Shown piece after piece: positions 15,010-61,574 of a DNA stretch of 64,000 bases. The notes under the pieces are model-generated. The model ran no database searches. It saw nothing but the letters and a program-made list of their open reading frames with translations, and was not told the DNA's origin. The position numbers and the translations under genes are program-made. Position 1 is the stretch's first letter. Every line of letters starts with the position of its first letter. Source of the DNA: Phototrophicaceae bacterium (GTDB taxonomy: Bacteria; Chloroflexota; Anaerolineae; Aggregatilineales; Phototrophicaceae); assembly GCA_965243795.1 (NCBI GenBank), contig OZ251576.1, positions 3,156,810-3,220,809 on the forward strand, given 5' to 3'.

Positions 15010-15250
15010 AAAAACCAAAACCGCGACCTTTGAGTCGCCCTTCCCACCTGCAAACGCGGTATAAAGAATCTGCACAGCATAAAATCGAAATCGCCTTATG
15101 ACCGAAAAAATTTCTTTTGCGAACATAAAACGGACACAAAGCAGATGTTGCCCTCTGTGCCTCTGTGTCCTCTGTGGTAAAAAGCACATAGAGGCGAAAT
15201 CGCTTATGCGCGAAAAAGTTTGTCTTTCGCGCACAAAACGCGCATAAAAC
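15010..15250 (-). repeat. Intergenic repeat core, copy 1; it contains one intact and one degenerate hairpin module
   Basis: The reverse complement matches the copies at 23863-24015 and 42559-42758. Shared blocks are GTTTTATGCGCGTTTT(A/G)TGCGCGAAAGACAAACTTTTTCGCGCATAAG and GGGAAGGGCGACTCAAAG(G/A)TCGC(G/A)GTTTTGGTTTTT. Confidence 0.85.
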
Positions 15251-15253
15251 CAG

Positions 15254-23773: not shown

Positions 23774-23862
23774 AATGAGACTGTCAATTCATCTTATATC
23801 ACACGGGCTACTTTACACAAACTTATCCTGCCTGTCAACATGCCGCGATGATGGCAGAACTT

Positions 23863-24015
23863 GTTTTATGCGCGTTTTATGCGCGAAAGGAAAACTTTTT
23901 CGCGCATAAAGCGATTTCACTTTATGCTATGCAGTTCTTTATACCGCGTTTGCGGGCCGAAGAGGTGACTAAACGTTCGCAGTTTTGGTTTTCGCATGTC
24001 TTTATTTTTTACCAT
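23863..24015 (+). repeat. Intergenic repeat core, copy 2 (no tandem array attached)
   Basis: It contains a 12-bp-stem hairpin, TTATGCGCGAAA (23877-23888) pairing with TTTCGCGCATAA (23898-23909). It ends in CGCAGTTTTGGTTTTCGCATGTCTTTATTTTTTACCA, as copy 3 does. Confidence 0.85.
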
Positions 24016-24216
24016 TCCCCAATGATGGGCATGGCAGACAGCTGCAACTTCAAGCAAAAGGACATGAGGCCGTCATCCTGGGCAAAGGACAAATCGCGCT
24101 GATTCCAGCCCGCGTTGAGTCACTCTCTATTCAAGTCGCCGGGACCGCTCCGCGCTCATGCCAAAGCCCCGCCTTGTAATCATGTGATTGCGGAGCAGGT
24201 ATGCAGATAAAAAGAA

Positions 24217-26238
24217 TTATTCGATCAATTTTTCTAGTCTTTTTTCGATCCACTTAGCAAATCGATGTTCCCAGTCATCAATCCGATTTCGTATGGCTCT
24301 CCCATCCTTTAACTCCAATATAAAAAATACGAGTAGAACTAACCACAAACAAACTAATACAAACTGGATTCCTGGAGTTTGCTCATTAAGGTCAATTATC
24401 GACAATACGTCAAGAGGAGAACTAACAAGCAAAAACAAAATACTTGCAAGGCCTAAAATGAATCTTACGCCAGTAAATAATGGTTTTGCCCATCGTTTTG
24501 ATCGCGCTTTTCTATTCTTCGCCGCTCTCTGCTGTGTTTCAAAGAGTTCTTGTCTCTTACGTTGCTCGTTTTCAAGTTTTTGGGTCAGTGCTAGCGTGCG
24601 CGCATCTGCTTGGCTTTGTAGCTCAGCTTGTTTGCGCGAAGCCTCATCCAATGCTTCTTGTTGGAATTTCGTTTTTACAGCTTTCCGGATTTCCTGAACT
24701 GCCCCTTCGGTCAATATCTCAGGTGATCCATGTGTGATCTCCATCAATGAATTTCTTGCTTCCTGAGTATAGCGAAAGGCATAATAATCATCTGACTTGA
24801 TTTCACGGCGCGCTTGTAATTGCTCGATTTTCTTGACATATATTTTCCATAAATAGGGGTCTGGTTGAGTTGCGGCGTAAGCGTCCGCAATTATTTGTTT
24901 TCGCGGCATATCAGGGAGAGAATCGGGCCTTGTTAGCCAAAGCAAGTTTGCGACAGTGAAATCTGTCAGACAATGTGTCACAGTATTCGCCGGTTCATCA
25001 AAGTACTCATGAGATGATCTTAAAAGCGCAACATTGTGTGTAACGAAAATAGCTTTGCAATCCTCAATTTTGTTAAATGATTTACCTTTTCGCAGACGAT
25101 GAATTGAAGCAACGGAGTCAACATCATTTCTTATTTGTCTTATTTGTTTGCTTCTGTCTGCATTAGCATTACTTGAATATTTATCAGACAGAAGAGTTTC
25201 CAATCGATCTTCATCTATTACATATTCTCTCACATATTCAGGTTTATCTCTGATTTCGATGCCTAGTGCACCAAGATTATCTTCTACAGTTTGCAGCTCC
25301 AACAATATGTCGGACGGCGTATAGCCTTTTCCCATCATAAAGTCAATAGAAAAAGCTAGCCGACCATATGCTTGACCTATGTTTCCGCTCTCAATTATTT
25401 TCGAGCATGCAAATAAGATATTCTCAACTTCTTCAACATTATGAGCAAAGCACCGCATCTTCGCGCCGGTCAATTTAAGTGCCGAAAGCAATTCGCCGCG
25501 TAACTCTTGTTTTGTCTTGCCTTGATAGCCCAGCGCCTCAATCAAAAATGGTGTGTCAAAATAGAACGATGTCGTCCATCGTTTCTTGATACTCTTGTTG
25601 TTGTCAGGCAAATATAAAACATTTACAAGCATCATACCCTTAAGAACTGTCTCAAGATATTCTAATTCCTTGCCTTGATTCCGCGATATATGCGTGACAA
25701 ACGAGCCTACCATGTATTTATGCGTAGGATCACGCGATGATTGAAGAGGGATGATGGGTTGTGTTTTAGATAACATTGCATTGAGGAGTGCAACCTGATG
25801 TTCTGCTAAGAATCCCTCCAACAGATTTTCGGCATCTTGTCGTGTAATATTCCTGCTAAATTCAGACTCACAGTATTCGACCATATTATCAATAAGGGAG
25901 TCGTACTTTTCTAGCACGTTAGCTTGCATATCTGAGAAATTTCTATTCCTGAGTTTCTCGCGATTAGGTGTATAATATCGGTTCTCGCGACGGATTAACT
26001 TGCGCCTCTCCAATCTACGAAGCAAACTGTCTATGACACCCGTTGGTAATTTGAGTCCAAAAATTCTCTGAAATTCAACCTGCAATTCGTTAATTGCAAG
26101 AACAGATTCATCGTGCTGTGAGATAACTTCAGCTAACATTTCCGAGAACGGATACAGATAGCCCTTACTTCTATCCTTATCCCAATTTGCCATGAGTATC
26201 GCTAGACTAGCGATAATATGTTCTTGCTCGTTTCTCAT
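24217..26238 (-). CDS. Unknown 673-aa protein: N-terminal wHTH-like region, central PIN-like motif set, coiled coil, two C-terminal TM helices
   Basis: Long ORF in a markedly AT-rich segment. Motifs: LPTGVIDSLLRRLERRKLIRRENRYYTPN (wHTH-like); FYFD228TPFLIEALG, HNVE269E270VENIL, IRND372VDSVASI and AIFVT400HN (VapC/PIN-like pattern); a charged heptad-like stretch at about 515-580; hydrophobic helices at about 586-607 and about 623-642. Confidence 0.8.
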   Translation of the reverse strand: MRNEQEHIIASLAILMANWDKDRSKGYLYPFSEMLAEVISQHDESVLAINELQVEFQRIFGLKLPTGVIDSLLRRLERRKLIRRENRYYTPNREKLRNRNFSDMQANVLEKYDSLIDNMVEYCESEFSRNITRQDAENLLEGFLAEHQVALLNAMLSKTQPIIPLQSSRDPTHKYMVGSFVTHISRNQGKELEYLETVLKGMMLVNVLYLPDNNKSIKKRWTTSFYFDTPFLIEALGYQGKTKQELRGELLSALKLTGAKMRCFAHNVEEVENILFACSKIIESGNIGQAYGRLAFSIDFMMGKGYTPSDILLELQTVEDNLGALGIEIRDKPEYVREYVIDEDRLETLLSDKYSSNANADRSKQIRQIRNDVDSVASIHRLRKGKSFNKIEDCKAIFVTHNVALLRSSHEYFDEPANTVTHCLTDFTVANLLWLTRPDSLPDMPRKQIIADAYAATQPDPYLWKIYVKKIEQLQARREIKSDDYYAFRYTQEARNSLMEITHGSPEILTEGAVQEIRKAVKTKFQQEALDEASRKQAELQSQADARTLALTQKLENEQRKRQELFETQQRAAKNRKARSKRWAKPLFTGVRFILGLASILFLLVSSPLDVLSIIDLNEQTPGIQFVLVCLWLVLLVFFILELKDGRAIRNRIDDWEHRFAKWIEKRLEKLIE

Positions 26239-26418
26239 TTAGATGACCTTAAATTTTTTGGAAATCTGGCTTCTTAGTCCAGACACGAGGTCAGATCGGG
26301 CGCGGGCGTTTTCATCCAGCGAGCGTTCAACATAATTGATTAGCCACTTGCCGAATGCCAACGCGCCGATGCCCAGTCCGATGACTTCAAGCTGGAGGGT
26401 TTGCAGAATGTCCATCAT
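26239..26418 (-). CDS. Small membrane protein (59 aa), missing from the ORF track because it is under 60 aa
   Basis: Own translation: MMDILQTLQLEVIGLGIGALAFGKWLINYVERSLDENARARSDLVSGLRSQISKKFKVI. AGGA lies upstream of the ATG. Its TAA (26239-26241) directly abuts the ATG of the 673-aa gene (26236-26238). Confidence 0.6.
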   Translation of the reverse strand: MMDILQTLQLEVIGLGIGALAFGKWLINYVERSLDENARARSDLVSGLRSQISKKFKVI

Positions 26419-26433
26419 TTATTCCTGTCCGGC

Positions 26434-26886
26434 CTAGGGAACACAATGATCACTGTCAAATCCTACACTTATCAGGGCAACCGCTTCCTGAGGATGCAGT
26501 CCGAGTTTGAGCAACTTGTTAAAGCCAAGTTTTCGATCAAACTCTTTTTGACGGCAATTTTCATATTCCCATCTTTCCTTCTGAGTTCTCCTCTCATGGC
26601 GAAAACAGTTATCCACAGAATAATGACGAAGCTCATTAAAATCATGCTCAATTTGCCTTATTTCTGCATCCGTCAGCGTCAAGCGAGATCGAATCTCTGC
26701 CTTGACCCCTGCTGCGACCCGGGTTGCAACCCGCGCGTCAAATTCCGCTTCAATTCGCTCGACAACCGCTCGCCCACCAAAAAATATCCCAAAACCTGCA
26801 AGCCCTATAACAGTGCAGAACCCAAGCAAGACCAATACATCCACCAAGCCTGGCCCATGCTTCGTCGTTCCCTGTCTCTTATCCAT
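26434..26886 (-). CDS. Unknown 150-aa protein: N-terminal TM helix plus a charged helical region
   Basis: I prefer ATG 26884-26886 (MDKRQGTT...) because AGGAGGAG lies 5 nt upstream. TM helix LVDVLVLLGFCTVIGLAGFGIFFGG. The rest is Glu/Arg-rich. It ends 15 nt before the 59-aa ORF. Confidence 0.65.
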   Translation of the reverse strand: MDKRQGTTKHGPGLVDVLVLLGFCTVIGLAGFGIFFGGRAVVERIEAEFDARVATRVAAGVKAEIRSRLTLTDAEIRQIEHDFNELRHYSVDNCFRHERRTQKERWEYENCRQKEFDRKLGFNKLLKLGLHPQEAVALISVGFDSDHCVP

Positions 26887-26994
26887 GCTACTCCTCCTCA
26901 TCTGCTAACAGATCGCTGAGCTCGGCGGCCTTCGCCACATCCATACCGCCCTTGACCAGCGAGTCAAAGTACAGGCACAGCCGGCCATAAGTTA

Positions 26995-27024
26995 ATTATA
27001 CAACAGACAATCGACGAAACACAA
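26995..27024 (-). promoter_or_regulatory. Candidate sigma70-type promoter for the three-gene operon
   Basis: Minus strand reads TTGTGT (27019-27024), an 18-nt spacer, then TATAAT (26995-27000), about 100 nt upstream of ATG 26886. Confidence 0.35.
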
Positions 27025-27277
27025 GGCTTAATGCTTTAGAGAGTGGTAGACATTCACCACTTTATACGCGCCATGATCCGCCACGCCATGCCGCACCATT
27101 CACTGACCTGGCGGGCATTGAATGTCCCGCGATTGCCTTGGACAGTGTACGCGGCAACATTTTGGCCAAGCCCCCCAGCGGCCAGACGCTAACAGGAATA
27201 TGACGTCCCTCTAACACCCTTTCGATAGTATCCCCCGACAATCAAAGCATTGATATAAGAACGCGAAGGGGTGGAAC

Positions 27278-29890
27278 ATGGATTTCAGCCGTTATACCAA
27301 TAAGGCGCAGCAGGCCTTGCTCAAGGCGCAGGGCATCGCTGGGGAATATCATCATGCGGCTGTCGCGCCGCTGCATATTCTGCTGGGGCTGCTGGAGCAG
27401 GACGAGGGCCTGGCGCCGCGGATTATTCAGAAAATTGGCGCGCATCCGGCCGGCGTCGGCGCTGAACTGCGGGGCCTGCTGGAAAAACTGCCGCGCATCG
27501 ACCAGCCAGAAGCGGGCATTCCGCTTGGCCGAGACGGCTTGCAGGTTTTGACCCAGGCCGAAAAAGAGGCCAAGAAGATGCGCGACGAATACACCAGCAG
27601 CGAACATCTGCTTTTGGCCTTGTCCAACGAACGCGAAACAGGGACTTTGCTGCGGCGTCATGCGGTCGGCTATGATGACATCCTGCAAGCGCTTCAGTCG
27701 ATTCGCGGGCGGCAGCGCATCACCAATCCTGATCCTGAATCGACCTATGAAAGCCTGGCCAAGTTCGGGCGCGATCTGACCGGCGATGCGCGGCAGGGCC
27801 GGCTCGACCCAGTGATTGGGCGCGATGAGGAGATTCGCCGCTTGATTCATGTGATCAGCCGCCGCACCAAGAACAATCCCGTCTTGATTGGCGAGGCTGG
27901 CGTGGGCAAGACGGCGATTGCCGAAGGCCTGGCGCAGCGGATTGTGAATGGGGATGTGCCTGATGGCCTGAAGGGCAAGACGGTCATCGCGCTGGATATG
28001 GCGGCGCTGGTCGCTGGCAGCAAGTTTCGCGGTGAATTCGAAGAGCGTCTGCAAGCTGTGCTGAAAGAGATAGCCGAAAGCGACGGCGAAATCATCCTCT
28101 TCATCGACGAACTGCATAATATCGTTGGCGCCGGGCGCGCCGAAGGCTCTATGGACGCCGGCAATATGCTCAAGCCGATGCTGGCGCGGGGCGAACTGCG
28201 GATGATTGGGGCGACCACGTTGGACGAATACCGCCGGCATATCGAAAAGGACGCCGCGCTGGAACGGCGTTTTCAGCCTATTTATGTGCAGGAGCCGACG
28301 GTGGAAGACGCGGTTAGCATTCTGCGCGGGCTGAAGGAGCGCTATGAGGTGCATCATGGCGTGCGGATCCAAGACGGCGCGGTCATTGCCGCCGCTGCCC
28401 TTAGTCATCGCTATCTGCCCGACCGCCAGCTGCCGGACAAAGCCATTGACTTGATTGACGAAGCCGCCGCGCATCTCAAAATGGAAATCGACAGCAAGCC
28501 GGCGCCGCTTGACAAAATCGAGCGGCAGATGATGCAGCTGGAAATCGAGCGGGCGGCCTTGCGGAAGGAAAAGGACGCCGCCTCCAAACGCCGTCTGGAA
28601 GATCTGGAGGCCGAGCTTGCCGATGCCCAGGAAGAGTTTAGCGGTCTGCTGGCCGTTTGGCAGCGCGAGAAAGACGTCATTCAGGGCATGTCGGACATCA
28701 AAGCGGCCATCGACGAAGCCCGGATTCAGCTGGAGCGGGCCGAACGAGAGAGCAGCCTGGAAGAGGCGGCCCGCCTGCGTTATGGTCGACTGCCCGAATT
28801 GGAGCGAACGCTGCGGGCGCGCGAAGCGGCGATTGAGGCCATGCGCGGCGAGGGGACATTGATGCTGAAGGAAGAGGTGGATGCCGATGAGGTGGCGGCC
28901 ATCGTCAGTCGCTGGACGGGTGTTCCCGTGACGCGGCTGCTGGAAGGCGAAATCGAAAAGCTGCTGCACATGGAAGAGCGTCTGCATGCGCGCGTGGTCG
29001 GCCAGGATGCGGCCATTCAAGCTGTGACGGCCGCCGTTCGCCGCAGCCGCGCCGGCCTGCAAGACCCCAGCCGGCCAGTAGGCGCGTTCCTGTTTTTGGG
29101 GCCGACCGGCGTCGGCAAGACCGAGATGGCGCGTTCACTGGCGCAGTTTCTATTCGACGACGAACAGGCGATGGTGCGGATCGACATGAGCGAATATGGC
29201 GAAAAGCACAGCGTCGCCCGTTTGATTGGCGCGCCGCCGGGTTATGTTGGCTATGAAGAAGGCGGCCAGCTGACGGAAGCGGTTCGGCGCCGGCCTTACT
29301 GTGTTGTCCTGTTTGACGAAATCGAAAAGGCTCATGCTGATGTCTTCAATATCTTCCTGCAAATCTTTGAGGATGGGCGGCTGACAGATGGGCAGGGGCG
29401 CACCGTCAGCTTTGCCAGCAGCGTCATTATTATGACCAGCAACGCGGGAAGCGCGCTCATCAAGCAGATGGGGCCCAGGCCAGACCCGACCGCGCAGCGC
29501 AAGGCCATCATGGCCGAACTCGACCGCCATTTCCGCCCAGAGTTTCTGAATCGGCTGGACGAGATCATCATCTTCCACAGCTTGACGGAAGAGCATATTA
29601 TCCGCATTGCCGACATCCAGCTAGGTCGACTGGAAAGACTGCTGGCCGAACGGCAGATCACGATTGAAGTAAGCGCGGCGGCCAAAGCCCGGCTGGCGGA
29701 ATTGGGCTGGGATGCGGTGTTTGGCGCCCGGCCGCTGAAACGGGCCATCCAAAGCCACATTCAAGACCCGCTGGCGCTGGCGATTCTTGAGGGACGGATC
29801 AAAGAAGGCGATGATGTCCGCATCGACCTTGACGCCGACGGCCTTGATTTTGTCTATGAATCGGCGCCGCTGGAATTGGCCGGCGTCTAG
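27278..29890 (+). CDS. clpB: ATP-dependent chaperone ClpB
   Basis: 870 aa. Clp N domain; two AAA+ modules ([30 protein letters not shown]); a long middle coiled coil. Confidence 0.95.
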
Positions 29891-57620: not shown

Positions 57621-60035
57621 TCAAACCCCAGTCGGCGCCCAGATATTCTTGACTTGCACTGACTGGCGGATGAATTCGGCGCCGGCGCCCTGCTGCGGGT
57701 CAGTCCAGGCGCGCTTTTGGCCATAATTTACCCAGGTGCGCTTCAGATTATAGGCCGAACGCGCTTCAACCTGTCGACTGCCTTCCGCATCGCCAAAATA
57801 CCACAGGCTATCGACATCGTCATGTTCAGCTAGGGTCAAGACCAGATGATCGCGGCTGCCGGTGATGATATTGACAACGCCAGGCGGCAAATCCGAAGTG
57901 TCAAACACTTGATAGAGATCGACAGCGCTAAGTGAATACCGCGGCGATGGGATGCAAACGACCGTGTTCCCGCGCGAGATGGCCGGCGCGATCAGCGAGA
58001 CAAAAGCCAGCAGGGGAAAATCATCTGGGCAGGCCATGCCAATAACGCCAATCGGCTCGTGGATGGCCGTCACCAAGCCGCGCAGAGTCGTCTCCTGCAC
58101 AGCGCCGCCCGATTTGTCGGCCAAGGCGGCCCAATGGAAGAGGCGATGAATGGCCGCTTCAACCTCGTCGCGGCCGACGGCGATTTTCTCGTCGGTCATG
58201 GCGGCGATGCGGGCGGCGAATTCCTCTTGGCGCGCCGACAGATTTTCAGCGATGTAGTACAGGATTTGCGCCCGATTGTGAGGTGAATAATAAGCCCAGT
58301 CTTTGGCTTTGCGGGCGGCCTCGACAGCATCGCGGGCATCCTTGCGATTGCCATCGCCAACTTGGCCGATCAGTTTGCCGGCCGGCGACAGGACAGCGCG
58401 GGTATAGTTGCCGTCGGGACGTTTTTGGGCGCCGCCGATATACAGCTTGGCGGTGCGGTCAAGGCGGTCGGTGGGGCCGTCGCTGACGTTCAGGCCAATC
58501 GGCTTTGCAGGCAGGTTTGTCCCCCAATGCTCTGCGGGCGCGTCTAGTTTGGGGCGCGGCATCGACAGCCAGCTTGGCCGTAGATACTCAAACAGCCCCT
58601 CTTTGCCGCCTTCGCGTCCAAAGCCGCTTTCGCGATAGCCGCCGAAACCGGCCGCCGCGTCAAATAAGTTTGTGCTGTTAAGCCAGACGGCGCCGACCTT
58701 GAGCTTGCGGGCGGTGTCGAGAGCCAGGCTGATGTTTTCGCTCCAGACCGAGGCCGCCAGGCCATAGCGGCTGTTGTTGGCCAGGTCAATCGCTTCGTCG
58801 GGAGTGCGGAAGCTCATCGCCGCCAGCACCGGCCCAAAAATCTCTTCTTGGGCAATCTGCGCTGATGCCGCGACGTTGGTTAGGAGCGTGGGCGGATAAT
58901 AACAGCCGCGTTCAGGCAGATCGATTGACGGCTGGAAGATGTCAGCGCCTTCGGCCAGGCCCTGCTTGACCCAGGCGTCGATGTTTTCGCACTGAACGGG
59001 GTCGACCACAGCGCCGATGTCGATGCCCTTGTCCAGCGAATCGCCGACGCGCAGGCCTGTCATGCGCCGCTTGAGCTTGTCGATAAAGACAGCAGCGATG
59101 TTTTCCTGTACCAGCAAACGCGATCCAGCGCAGCAGACCTCGCCTTGATTGAAAAAAATAGCATCGACCAGCCCCTCGACCGCGCTGTCCAAATCGGCGC
59201 TGTCATAGACGATAAAGGGTGATTTGCCGCCCAGTTCCAGCGACAGTTTTTTGCCTGTCCCTGCCGTCGCCCGCCGAATGATCCGACCGACGGCAGTCGA
59301 TCCAGTGAAAGCAATTTTGTCGATGTCGGGATGAGCCACAACCGCGGCGCCGGCTTGGTCGCTGCCAGTGATGATATTGACGACGCCGGGCGGCAGGCCG
59401 GCTTCAGCGATAATCTCGGCAAAGAGCAGCGCAGTCAGCGGCGTATAGGGGGCTGGTTTGATGACGACGGTGTTGCCCATCGCAATCGCCGGGGCAATTT
59501 TCCAGGCCAGCATCAACAGGGGGAAATTCCACGGAATCACCTGCCCGACCACGCCCAGCGAGCGATAATCGCGCAGTTCGCTGTCCATTAGCTGCGCCCA
59601 GCCGGCATGATAATAAAAATGACGCGCGGCCAGCGGAATGTCAATATCGCGCGCTTCGCGGATGGGTTTGCCGTTGTCCAGGCTTTCGACCACCGCCAGC
59701 AGACGTTGATGCTTCTGCATATTACGCGCCACCGCATACAAATGCCGCGCGCGCTGATGCGGACTCAGCCCATTCCATAAGGGATAGGCCGCCCGCGCCG
59801 CTTGGACAGCTTGGTCAACGTCCGCTTCTGTGGCATCGGCGACGCTTGCCAGGGTCTCGTCCCGCGCTGGATTGGCGACCGACAGACAGCCAGATTCGGC
59901 CGGCTTGACCCATTGATTGTTGATGAACAGGTCAAACTGCCGTCCATGCGCGTCCAGCCAGGCTTGGGCGGCGGCATCCGATTCAGGCGCGGGGCCGTAG
60001 CTCATAGTTTGATACAGTTCGGCTATTTCGGACAT
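57621..60035 (-). CDS. Aldehyde dehydrogenase fusion: a complete ALDH domain plus a second, partial ALDH-like domain
   Basis: The N-terminal 490 aa or so carry LELGGKSP and EVCCAGSR catalytic motifs. The C-terminal 300 aa or so repeat the NAD-binding-half pattern (GVIGMACPDDFPLL..., PPGVVNIITGS) without a catalytic Cys motif. Confidence 0.85.
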   Translation of the reverse strand: MSEIAELYQTMSYGPAPESDAAAQAWLDAHGRQFDLFINNQWVKPAESGCLSVANPARDETLASVADATEADVDQAVQAARAAYPLWNGLSPHQRARHLYAVARNMQKHQRLLAVVESLDNGKPIREARDIDIPLAARHFYYHAGWAQLMDSELRDYRSLGVVGQVIPWNFPLLMLAWKIAPAIAMGNTVVIKPAPYTPLTALLFAEIIAEAGLPPGVVNIITGSDQAGAAVVAHPDIDKIAFTGSTAVGRIIRRATAGTGKKLSLELGGKSPFIVYDSADLDSAVEGLVDAIFFNQGEVCCAGSRLLVQENIAAVFIDKLKRRMTGLRVGDSLDKGIDIGAVVDPVQCENIDAWVKQGLAEGADIFQPSIDLPERGCYYPPTLLTNVAASAQIAQEEIFGPVLAAMSFRTPDEAIDLANNSRYGLAASVWSENISLALDTARKLKVGAVWLNSTNLFDAAAGFGGYRESGFGREGGKEGLFEYLRPSWLSMPRPKLDAPAEHWGTNLPAKPIGLNVSDGPTDRLDRTAKLYIGGAQKRPDGNYTRAVLSPAGKLIGQVGDGNRKDARDAVEAARKAKDWAYYSPHNRAQILYYIAENLSARQEEFAARIAAMTDEKIAVGRDEVEAAIHRLFHWAALADKSGGAVQETTLRGLVTAIHEPIGVIGMACPDDFPLLAFVSLIAPAISRGNTVVCIPSPRYSLSAVDLYQVFDTSDLPPGVVNIITGSRDHLVLTLAEHDDVDSLWYFGDAEGSRQVEARSAYNLKRTWVNYGQKRAWTDPQQGAGAEFIRQSVQVKNIWAPTGV

Positions 60036-60089
60036 GGGATGTTCCTTGTGCGCTGGAGAGTTCTTAAATCACTTAAAAATATCGCCTAT

Positions 60090-61517
60090 TTATGAATCAT
60101 CCGCCGGCGGATTCTTCTCTAAGAATAACCTGATTTCTGGCGGGAACGGGACATGCCATCCGCCACGCCAAGGACCGAATATATTGCTTGCGCGATTAAT
60201 AAGGCTTAAAATTATCTCCGCAAGTTCTTGATCGTCTAATTGCCCATCCCAAAGCATATCTCTAAACTGTGTATCCTCAATTATTCTTTGCATAATAGAG
60301 ACTGTCCGTTCTCGGCGGTATCGTACAAAAAACGGATAAGGAATGTGACGGTCTCCCATACTGGTTTGGTCATAGACAAAGCGGATAAAATCAAACTGGC
60401 AAATACAATCTGCTATCTTTTCCTTATCATCTGAAAATTGTCGATAGAGGTAGCTGTTCTCCTTTCCGATGTTTATGGTATGCTTTAGGAATGTCATATA
60501 ATCAATTCTGGCATTTTCTGGCATATGCCGCATCCAAAACATTCCCTCTTGCATATACTGCATCCAAAACATTCCCTTATAATAAGAATCCCAGCTTATC
60601 GGTATCGGATGTTTCACAAAATCTGACATCCATTCATATTTACCCTCTTGTACAAGAATCGCGCCCAAGAGGTACAGCTTTGGCAAAAGATCAGCCCAAA
60701 TCCGAAGCGTTTCGTCGGCGTGCTTAGTATGTGGAGTGCGAAACCGCTCGTGTGCGTCCTTAAAAATAAGTTGCAGGGTTCGCAGAAATTCTTGATATAA
60801 CTCTAGTTGATCGTATCGAATAAAAACGACTCCAAAAATGATGATTTTGTCTATAAGTGCTTCGAGTATATCACCTTGTGATTCTTCTGTTTCTGATGCT
60901 TTATTCAAAAAGTAGTTCGGGAATTCACGCAAATACTTTTTAATCCGCAATACATTACCCGCTTCAAGCAATTCGAAAATATCATTCTCAAGTTCTTCCA
61001 ATGATTTATCCAGAATCTCATCAAGCTCCGTACGGGTGCCAAACTTATAACCTAGTTTTTTAAGCTCTTGCTCAATGAAGCCTATTCCTTTTCTCATATC
61101 ATCTCGAAAATCGCTCCCGCCTCGTACATGCGAACTTTGATAATCTAGTATCTCTTGAATTCCAGATGGCAGCTTGTCCTTCTTTGGCACGGGCGCATTC
61201 TTAATACAGATCGGAGCGATCATGATTCCTTTGTCTAAGGCTCGTTTGATCTCCTTTACCAGATAATCTGGCTCATCACTCTCGGATTTTTCTTTAAGCA
61301 AGTCAAGCCATTGAGGCCCAATAACGGCCACCAAAACATCTGATTCATCCACTTCTTTAATGATGTGTTCCTCAAAGCGCGTAAAATCTGGTATATCCAG
61401 GTCCATAAAAACATTTTCTTCCCCATAACGACCTACAAAATGATCGTACATTCGTCCGACGAAATCTGGTTCATCAACTCTGCGATAACTGATGAATATC
61501 TTGGGCTGCTGACTCAT
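60090..61517 (-). CDS. TIR-domain protein with an unknown C-terminal domain of about 330 aa
   Basis: AT-rich ORF. GGAGG lies 7 nt before ATG 61515-61517. The N-terminus is TIR_2-like: KIFISYRRVDEPDFVGRMYDHFVGRYGEENVFMDLD...DVLVAVIGPQWL...DYLVKEIKRAL. Confidence 0.8.
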   Translation of the reverse strand: MSQQPKIFISYRRVDEPDFVGRMYDHFVGRYGEENVFMDLDIPDFTRFEEHIIKEVDESDVLVAVIGPQWLDLLKEKSESDEPDYLVKEIKRALDKGIMIAPICIKNAPVPKKDKLPSGIQEILDYQSSHVRGGSDFRDDMRKGIGFIEQELKKLGYKFGTRTELDEILDKSLEELENDIFELLEAGNVLRIKKYLREFPNYFLNKASETEESQGDILEALIDKIIIFGVVFIRYDQLELYQEFLRTLQLIFKDAHERFRTPHTKHADETLRIWADLLPKLYLLGAILVQEGKYEWMSDFVKHPIPISWDSYYKGMFWMQYMQEGMFWMRHMPENARIDYMTFLKHTINIGKENSYLYRQFSDDKEKIADCICQFDFIRFVYDQTSMGDRHIPYPFFVRYRRERTVSIMQRIIEDTQFRDMLWDGQLDDQELAEIILSLINRASNIFGPWRGGWHVPFPPEIRLFLEKNPPADDS

Positions 61518-61574
61518 AGGCAAACCTCCGCGCCGCTGTAATTAGCTGTTTGGTTATCACAATAATAACCCGCT

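Follow-up and report, generated by a model that had tools for sequence, protein, structure and literature searches.

Introduction

The locus described here encodes a single polypeptide in which a nuclease fold of the toxin type is combined with a domain of the DNA-binding type and with a membrane anchor. The gene concerned lies in a stretch of 64,000 nucleotides (positions 3,156,810 to 3,220,809 of contig OZ251576.1, assembly GCA_965243795.1) from a Phototrophicaceae bacterium of the phylum Chloroflexota, and this whole stretch is referred to below as the window and supplies all coordinates.

24217..26238, minus strand: whole coding sequence (CDS), 673 amino acids plus stop, from the open reading frame (ORF) call

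The ORF had been reported in a first-pass annotation of the DNA and was found to be genuine; it starts with ATG, is preceded by AAGG 8 nt upstream, and is located on the minus strand, which that annotation had not stated. The G+C content of the gene is 40.4% as compared to 56.8% for the window, the low-G+C stretch being roughly the gene itself. The product had been proposed to be a membrane-tethered nuclease-type effector, and this proposal is consistent with all of the in silico tests applied to its predicted structure and sequence, namely those of the PIN fold, the invariant acidic residues, the C-terminal hairpin and the genomic context.

PIN/VapC nucleases are among the commonest bacterial toxins and, to our knowledge, have nearly always been studied as two-gene toxin-antitoxin pairs. 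The analysis presented here establishes that the gene belongs to a real and well-defined new family, and makes it a credible candidate for a single-gene defence system. Its predicted architecture and conserved active site are well supported in silico by modelling and alignment, and we consider it somewhat probable (at a rough probability of 0.55) that it encodes a single-polypeptide, inner-membrane-anchored PIN ribonuclease (RNase) which acts as a stand-alone abortive-infection effector against phages or mobile elements.

A predicted VapC-like PIN domain with an invariant active site

The whole protein was modelled with AlphaFold2 (AF2) on 54 homologues (mean predicted local distance difference test score (pLDDT) 84.5, predicted template modelling score (pTM) 0.71), and residue conservation was determined from an alignment of 54 homologues that are 26-90% identical to the query. 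The following features were assigned within the central part of the protein.

24919..25596, minus strand: VapC-like PIN domain, residues 215-440, with a helical insert at about 285-357, from VIA-align, Foldseek and conservation
25555..25557, minus strand: codon of D228, the Asp after strand S1, invariant (54/54)
25429..25431, minus strand: codon of E270, the Glu in the helix after S2 (VapC-type position), invariant (54/54)
25210..25215, minus strand: codons of D342-E343 at the start of helix 343-354, E343 invariant and D342 in 91%
25123..25125, minus strand: codon of D372 in the helix preceding S4, invariant (54/54)
25033..25041, minus strand: T400-H401-N402 after S4, N402 invariant and T400 in 98%

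The strands of the predicted PIN domain comprise residues 224-227, 260-264, 328-330, 396-400 and 423-425, with helices between them, in agreement with a Rossmann-like alpha/beta/alpha core of parallel sheet and crossover helix. D228 follows the first of these strands, E270 is located in the helix 265-284 that comes after strand 260-264, D372 lies inside the helix 362-382 ahead of strand 396-400, and T400-H-N402 follows the latter strand. When the model was compared with about 48,000 solved chains by VIA-align, the top matches for residues 220-442 were VapC/PIN chains at Z 9-10.7, among them 1y82_A (Z 10.7, 147 residues aligned, root-mean-square deviation (rmsd) 4.0), 7vwo_A (Z 10.2) and the VapC2 chain 3zvk_A (Z 10.5, rmsd 3.0, with 131 of its 134 residues aligned), and 10 of the best 20 rows were named VapC, VapBC or FitAB. 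Foldseek with the whole model retrieved PIN chains at a probability of 0.93-0.99 and an E value of only 0.08-0.29, none reaching E<=0.001, while the matches in the ESM Atlas were 'hypothetical' clusters only. The nuclease core that had been suspected from motifs in the translation is thus recovered as a VapC/PIN fold in the AF2 model.

All 54 homologues retain D228, E270, E343, D372 and N402; T229 and T400 are present in 98%, and E249, D310, D342, E392 and D426 in 89-98%, of the same alignment. The motif set originally proposed therefore stands with regard to D228, D372 and T400-H-N, and the conservation of acidic residues expected of an active site was observed, with the correction that the invariant glutamate is E270 and not the neighbouring E269, and with the addition of E343, which had been overlooked. 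According to Matelska et al. (PMC5499597), acidic residues of the PIN superfamily are found after S1, in the helix that follows S2 and in the helix that leads to S4, and S4 itself is followed by Asp or Glu or by a supplementing Ser, Thr or Asn. D228 and E270 agree in position with this rule and with that of the VapC group, and D372 and N402 may be the counterparts of the two remaining residues. The combination of PIN fold and motif pattern is more than chance. Prediction of a homodimer of residues 215-673 returned a score of 0.00, which gave no answer, controls being absent.

The T-H-N triplet after S4 also occurs in two canonical VapC genes (PF01850) of the same genome. As a separate observation, these VapC genes (locus L061, 1088-1899, and locus L062, 1471-2666) have unusually long upstream partners of 136 and 265 amino acids, which have a common C-terminal tail, ...YRHMPWEQF..LTYGSLADDPIE, the longer partner being built of repeats.

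Winged helix, helical domains and membrane anchor

The PIN domain is preceded by a predicted DNA-binding-type domain and a helical linker, and is followed by a helical domain specific to the family, a charged helix and a transmembrane (TM) hairpin.

25858..26217, minus strand: MarR/SlyA-like winged helix-turn-helix (wHTH), residues 8-127, from the fold match of the N-terminal model
25597..25857, minus strand: helical linker or bundle, residues 128-214, with G201 invariant, from AF2 and the alignment
24709..24918, minus strand: family-specific helical domain, residues 441-510, from conservation
24484..24708, minus strand: charged long helix or coiled-coil region, residues 511-585, variable in sequence and length
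24418..24483, minus strand: TM helix 1, residues 586-607, from AF2 and hydropathy
24304..24375, minus strand: TM helix 2, residues 622-645, from AF2 and hydropathy
24220..24303, minus strand: predicted cytoplasmic amphipathic C-terminal helix, residues 646-673, with G646 nearly invariant

In the AF2 model the N-terminal domain shows helices at 49-60 and 66-78 and a wing formed by strands 82-85 and 88-91, which bears out the helix-turn-helix and wing seen earlier at residues 60-95 (the stretch quoted at the time corresponds to residues 64-92), and helices continue onward to residue 209. When only residues 1-215 were modelled, on 30 homologues (pLDDT 88), they matched regulators of the MarR, SlyA and SarA type at Z 8-10 over residues 1-117 with 90-103 residues aligned, the best-cited match being 2fbh_A (Z 10.0, 102 aligned). 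No match to the MarR family was obtained in Pfam, and only the fold is claimed for this part of the protein because Z scores of 8-10 are usual among winged helices.

Residues 441-510 represent the most conserved stretch of the protein, with a frequency of the commonest residue of 0.61; its AF2 helices run to residue 502, and W434, P438, A455 and P459 are invariant in or near it. The Gln/Glu/Arg/Lys-rich coiled coil noted earlier at 515-580 is present, and appears in the AF2 model as part of a single continuous helix spanning residues 511-606 (about 95 residues) and running into the first hydrophobic segment. Likewise, the two hydrophobic helices placed at about 586-607 and 623-642 coincide with Kyte-Doolittle peaks at 587-605 and 623-641, and the final AF2 helix spans residues 649-672. 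Among 238 full-length homologues, two C-terminal hydrophobic segments were found in 194, one in 41 and none in 3. The content of Lys and Arg is higher on the outer flanks than in the loop in 195 of 195 two-segment proteins (the 194 homologues and the query), with means of 4.5 ahead of TM1, 0.9 within the loop and 2.3 beyond TM2 and a median loop of 13 residues; this positive-inside pattern indicates a hairpin with both ends in the cytoplasm, and hence an enzyme facing the cytoplasm. Conservation is lowest in the TM and coiled-coil parts of the protein (commonest-residue frequency 0.30-0.34, no column at >=90%), whereas the PIN core and the domain that follows it contain 37 columns at >=90% identity-frequency, including all of the predicted metal-binding acidic residues. 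The charged helix and the TM segments vary in sequence across the family while the feature itself is constant.

Distribution of the family

A word-seeded search retrieved 196 relatives, none of which has a Pfam domain and all of the named ones being 'hypothetical', and phmmer, run exhaustively against 1.84 billion cluster representatives, gave 3,074 matches at E<=1e-3 and 1,227 clusters of 50% identity at E<=1e-30. Nearly all of the 150 phmmer matches listed are 610-710 amino acids long and were matched over most of their length; a search for shorter stand-alone forms gave a single fragment and one for longer fusions gave nothing, which is weak evidence that such forms are lacking. The 44 genomic loci collected derive from Chloroflexota, Bacillota, Actinomycetota, Acidobacteriota, Nitrospirota, Nitrospinota, Planctomycetota, Spirochaetota, Desulfobacterota, Pseudomonadota, Bacteroidota, Elusimicrobia, Coatesbacteria, Binatia and several Patescibacteria. 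Within the phylum of the window the distribution is sparse: the gene is missing from all 60 genomes searched within its own genus or order, and of 400 genomes sampled across the phylum 5 have a homologue, which in one case is a weak partial match. The gene is present as a single copy in each of 14 genomes scored, and most copies are chromosomal. Twelve plasmid records also carry a homologue, six of them from Enterococcus faecium and the remainder from Klebsiella, Pantoea and others, and these plasmid copies are always annotated as 'hypothetical protein' and lie among insertion sequence (IS) elements. A metagenome scan with the query protein found no relative.

With the Klebsiella plasmid copy as DNA query, a homologue was identified in 2 of 5,426 complete Escherichia coli genomes. 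Both of these E. coli copies sit in P2-like prophages, one of them adjoining a Hok/Gef gene. In E. coli FDAARGOS_1337 the gene is located between the tail sheath gene FI and the tail-fibre assembly gene G, in the opposite orientation; in the phage P2 record the same slot, which precedes FI directly and is read from the other strand, is held by fun(Z), which that record annotates as 'cloned gene blocks growth of T5; nonessential; lysogenic conversion'. The Z/fun locus is also named as a site of antiviral genes in a further publication (PMC13586616). The P2 prophage cases are rare, as homologues are nearly absent from phage collections.

The enterobacterial and enterococcal members are only 22-27% identical to the window protein, and retain D228, E270, D342, E343, D372, R383, G385, T400, N402, W434, P438 and both TM segments. 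One E. coli member, WP_096936374.1, is contained in row 328 of supplement file 1 of the DefensePredictor study (PMC13092281) with a mean log-odds of 8.9 and a predicted_defensive value of 1, under the category 'Predicted novel defense gene' and with no homology or Foldseek hit. This protein is absent from nine further supplement files of that study, including the list of cloned systems, which suggests that it was predicted there and apparently not assayed.

A stand-alone gene and its neighbourhood

The neighbours of the gene were compared at 41 loci, three of the 44 (L044, L046 and L051) having been dropped as short or partial matches. The largest common neighbour family, HsdM, was found at 4 of the 41 loci, none exceeding this number, and no small upstream ORF, as expected of a VapB-type antitoxin gene, is conserved among them. 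The gene stands alone, without a conserved partner. The protein itself matched no family of PADLOC-DB v2 at E<=1.

Neighbouring genes were assigned with Pfam for the two ORFs on either side (142 proteins) and with PADLOC for six ORFs on either side (37 loci, L047-L050 being left out). Pfam placed type I restriction-modification (R-M) genes next to the gene at L020, L026, L032 and L048, type II R-M pairs near it at L015, L035 and L038, and integrases, recombinases or transposases near it at L010, L025, L030, L036 and L043. PADLOC identified HsdR and a YgjP-like gene directly upstream at L017, GmrSD-like genes at L018 and L020, Wadjet JetA at L026, a type III methyltransferase with HEC-05 at L036 and PD-T7-4 at L012, and candidate families at L009, L011, L022, L031, L037 and L042. 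At five of the 41 loci, as compared to none of 25 control regions, the gene is co-oriented within or beside an hsd operon (p = 0.08).

The control comprised 25 regions of 16 kb taken at round-number offsets in 13 of the same genomes and processed in the same way as the loci, with G461 and G474 left out, the latter on account of its short contig. Established defence genes were observed at 10 of 37 loci as compared to 1 of 25 control regions (one-sided Fisher p = 0.019), and when the PADLOC candidate families were included the figures became 16 of 37 and 4 of 25 (p = 0.022). For the 13 matched genomes, established systems were present at 4 of 13 loci as compared to 1 of 25 (p = 0.038). Hits set aside as generic were, at the family loci, RtcR-like (L008), a partial PDC-M72A (L010), C3a186 (L021) and mad3 on UvrA (L039), and, in the control, mad3 (L101, L109), pVip on a radical-SAM protein (L102), HTH_VI (L106), mad8 (L115) and 2OG (L095).

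At L012 (931-5428), a PIN_8 protein of the DS-3 family is found two ORFs from the member, and a PD-T7-4-like protein within three ORFs; these form a small cluster of candidate single-gene defence systems.

A possibly polymorphic low-G+C segment in the window

The gene is carried, together with two further ORFs, by a segment of low G+C content whose left border abuts a dispersed repeat.

23988..27175: low-G+C segment of 3,188 bp (G+C 0.439), which carries the PIN gene and the 59- and 155-amino-acid ORFs
26239..26418, minus strand: ORF of 59 amino acids with one hydrophobic helix, clade-specific, its TAA abutting the ATG of the PIN gene
26434..26901, minus strand: ORF of 155 amino acids within the low-G+C segment, with a single TM segment and a charged helical tail
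23854-23993, also 15011-15143 and 15196-15253: dispersed repeat of about 140 nt with a hairpin of 18-bp stem at 23873-23913

Among Logan contigs of the sequencing runs X1 and X5, one contig joins position 23987 directly to 27176 and so skips 3,188 bp, the shorter side of this joint being only 30 letters long and the left border of the segment abutting the repeat. In run X1 the contig carrying the segment (23905-27205) has a depth of 238 and the skipping contig one of 105, with flanks at 343-351; 238 and 105 add up to 343, the depth of the flanks. These figures are suggestive of a presence/absence polymorphism in which about two thirds of the sequenced population contain the segment. In five congeners the FabF-M16 block and ClpB are far apart, and homology on the ClpB side starts at window position 27177. 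Neither a tRNA nor an Rfam match was detected at the segment, flanking direct repeats were likewise absent, and the two borders are dissimilar to each other. The repeat has 56 matches in its own genome at 76-95% identity and a contig depth about 40 times that of the flanks, and parts of the repeat stretch (window 23860-23992) were matched at other places in the congener G030. It looks like an element of the miniature inverted-repeat transposable element (MITE) or repetitive extragenic palindromic (REP) type. The PIN gene is horizontally acquired, accessory and mobile, as indicated by its low G+C content, its patchy spread over many phyla, the plasmid records and its apparent presence/absence form in the runs.

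The 59-amino-acid ORF is covered by contigs of close relatives (about 93% alike) up to 26412-26415 and has no counterpart at the 41 distant loci; its product may be a small membrane partner or a leader, unless the ORF is no gene at all. The 155-amino-acid ORF has no Pfam match and no counterpart at other loci, and its region gave no alignment at >=80% in the contigs of relatives; tblastn with this ORF and with an 84-amino-acid ORF gave no match against any of the loci. The PIN gene is flanked on one side by FabF and an M16 peptidase, and on the other by ClpB and a lysyl-PG synthase-like protein. A second low-G+C island (0.405 for 60001-61000) encodes, at 60090-61523 on the minus strand, a protein of 477 amino acids that begins with a TIR_2 domain (PF13676, matched at 35.7 bits where the cut-off is 28), and is a candidate for another defence gene. 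The GC skew changes sign at about 26000-27300, from negative on the left side to positive on the right side, with the cumulative minimum at 26001-27000, and this switch could represent a replication landmark, a rearrangement junction or a mere change of coding strand.

Proposed function and alternative explanations

The defence role is proposed on account of the patchy distribution, the low G+C content, the carriage on plasmids and prophages, the moderate enrichment of defence genes and the fun(Z) slot taken together. In the resting state the PIN active site would be kept inactive in cis by the wHTH and linker, as is done by a separate VapB in VapBC systems, such that the logic of a fused toxin-antitoxin would be contained in one chain. 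A cue of infection encountered there, for instance phage DNA as it enters, a protein of the phage or a perturbation of the membrane, may be sensed at the membrane by the wHTH and linker or by the coiled coil and TM hairpin. The freed PIN site would then cut an essential RNA, possibly tRNA or rRNA by analogy with VapC, upon which translation would halt and the phage would fail. We infer this mechanism from VapBC pairs and fused toxin-antitoxin defence proteins, on which it is modelled.

A number of observations weigh against this interpretation. With regard to the nuclease, the whole protein matched no PIN family in Pfam at E<=1 and nothing in NCBIfam, the best Pfam hits being the sub-threshold, non-PIN families CrgA and SelB-wing_2 (E 0.06; SelB-wing_2 E 0.062), and a sequence-profile search of the PDB was blank (best E 0.16, irrelevant matches). 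When sub-alignments of the PIN domain were compared by hhalign with 29 VapC sequences from genomes of the same phylum (L068 left out), only E 0.008-0.09 was reached, in a weak match that pairs D228 and E270 with the first Asp and Glu of VapC and includes T-x-N and leaves D372 unplaced; a separate hhalign match of 20 columns between an alignment of the family and one VapC was judged spurious. The residue after S4 is an asparagine (N402) rather than Asp or Glu, and D372 and E343 are both candidates for the third VapC acidic residue (at the N-terminus of H4), assigned from their secondary-structure position in the model. As to the context, the enrichment is moderate and its control small, 21 of 37 loci show nothing, the matched subset of 13 genomes gives p = 0.13 once candidate families are included, and hits were sorted into established, candidate and generic by the author and not blind. 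Furthermore, homologues were found in 0 of 50,697 phage records and at 1 locus only in IMG/VR, the neighbours of the gene in the window (M16 peptidase, FabF, ClpB) are housekeeping genes, and both the autoinhibition by the N-terminus and the nature of the trigger are purely inferred.

The asparagine after S4 and the lack of a significant profile match to PIN families would suit a PIN-like domain that is catalytically dead and serves as a scaffold or binding module, yet invariant acidic residues at four positions, and others at 89-98%, across very distant members, together with the same T-H-N in the genome's own VapC genes, make this highly improbable. An improbable reading, too, is that of a housekeeping or regulatory protein, either a membrane-tethered RNase for RNA turnover resembling RNase Y, which likewise combines an anchor, a coiled coil and a nuclease, or a membrane-sequestered MarR-type regulator; the MarR-like wHTH fold and the housekeeping neighbours would suit it, but the patchy spread (0/60 close relatives, 5/400 of the phylum), the low G+C content, the presence/absence form in the runs and the plasmid and prophage copies argue otherwise. 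Short effectors with two TM segments are common in defence systems, and C-terminal hydrophobic segments are retained in 235 of the 238 full-length homologues, so killing might be exerted by the coiled coil and TM hairpin through membrane disruption after oligomerisation, as in CBASS, Pycsar or retron systems, with PIN and wHTH acting as a nucleic-acid sensor or with both parts acting. We regard this as quite unlikely, however, since the TM and coiled-coil parts are the least conserved, whereas the highly conserved columns fall in the PIN core and the next domain, as expected of a catalytic part rather than of a binder.

A fused toxin-antitoxin or addiction module that stabilises its carrier element, or a stress-response protein, with the wHTH as cis-acting antitoxin and autoregulator in the manner of VapB, would agree with the PIN/VapC fold being that of a classic type II toxin, with copies on plasmids among IS elements and beside a Hok/Gef gene in one E. 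coli prophage, and with the lack of a partner gene, by which any antitoxin function must lie in cis. It is nevertheless unlikely, as a stable fused antitoxin cannot give the usual post-segregational killing, most copies are chromosomal and single, the conserved membrane anchor would have no role, and the co-location with R-M genes and the fun(Z) slot favour defence. A more specific immune function is possible and is put forward tentatively: the PIN RNase, held at the membrane by the hairpin, would be a sensor-effector whose MarR-like wHTH detects foreign DNA or a phage protein at entry and thereby unlocks tRNA or rRNA cleavage, and in some hosts it might act as a PrrC-like back-up guard of type I restriction.

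Significance

The family comprises more than 1,000 sequence clusters for which no Pfam, NCBIfam or PADLOC model exists and whose only annotation is 'hypothetical', and a single chain unites its toxin fold with a membrane anchor and a domain of the DNA-binding type. If the abortive-infection function proposed here is correct, it would extend the immune repertoire of many phyla by a new single-gene system that is also carried by Enterococcus and Klebsiella plasmids and by P2-like E. coli prophages, provide a clean model for the silencing of a toxin in cis, and pose the question why an RNase needs a membrane tether. If the sensor-effector reading is correct, the protein would be the first membrane-anchored defence nuclease of the VapC type, a fused toxin-antitoxin with a spatial trigger. 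The existence of an E. coli member renders the idea directly testable in a laboratory strain.

Comparison with known systems

The first-pass annotation knew of no described PIN protein with a coiled coil and a TM tail, and literature searches likewise found none. The nearest case, and the only membrane-bound PIN family that the searches brought up, is PIN.COG4956, described by Matelska et al. (2017, PMC5499597) as a PIN-TRAM protein with four N-terminal TM helices and of unknown function; it resembles the window protein in being a membrane-tied PIN domain of the VapC group, and differs in its four N-terminal TM helices, its TRAM domain, its PF01850 match and the lack of a wHTH and of a coiled coil. 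DS-3 (working name PIN8; PIN_8, PF18476) is, according to the portion of PMC13092281 consulted, a single PIN protein without antitoxin that protects E. coli; protection is lost when its catalytic residues are mutated, and its authors propose autoinhibition. It resembles the window protein in consisting of one protein with a PIN domain and no antitoxin gene, whereas its CDS has 1,023 nt, the window protein has no PIN_8 match, and neither TM segments nor a wHTH are reported for DS-3 in that portion.

With regulators of the MarR/SlyA/SarA type the protein has in common the fold of residues 1-117, and it differs from them by lacking a Pfam MarR match. PrrC and RloC are anticodon nucleases embedded in type I R-M systems; they combine an ATPase with a HEPN-type nuclease and are not known as PIN or membrane proteins. 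The five family members inside or beside hsd operons occupy a slot similar to that of prrC. The likeness to P2 Fun(Z) is one of genomic position, the same slot being occupied by one E. coli member. The closest relation in structure is to VapC of the VapBC systems (PF01850), with which the window protein has in common the alpha/beta/alpha fold (Z 9-10.7, whole targets aligned), the Asp after S1, the Glu in the helix after S2, and, by their predicted position, an Asp-bearing helix before S4 and the T-x-N after S4. Unlike VapC, the window protein is five times larger, has no Pfam match and no separate antitoxin gene, and carries in the same chain a helical insert of about 70 residues, a MarR-like N-terminus, a helical domain, a coiled coil and a TM hairpin.

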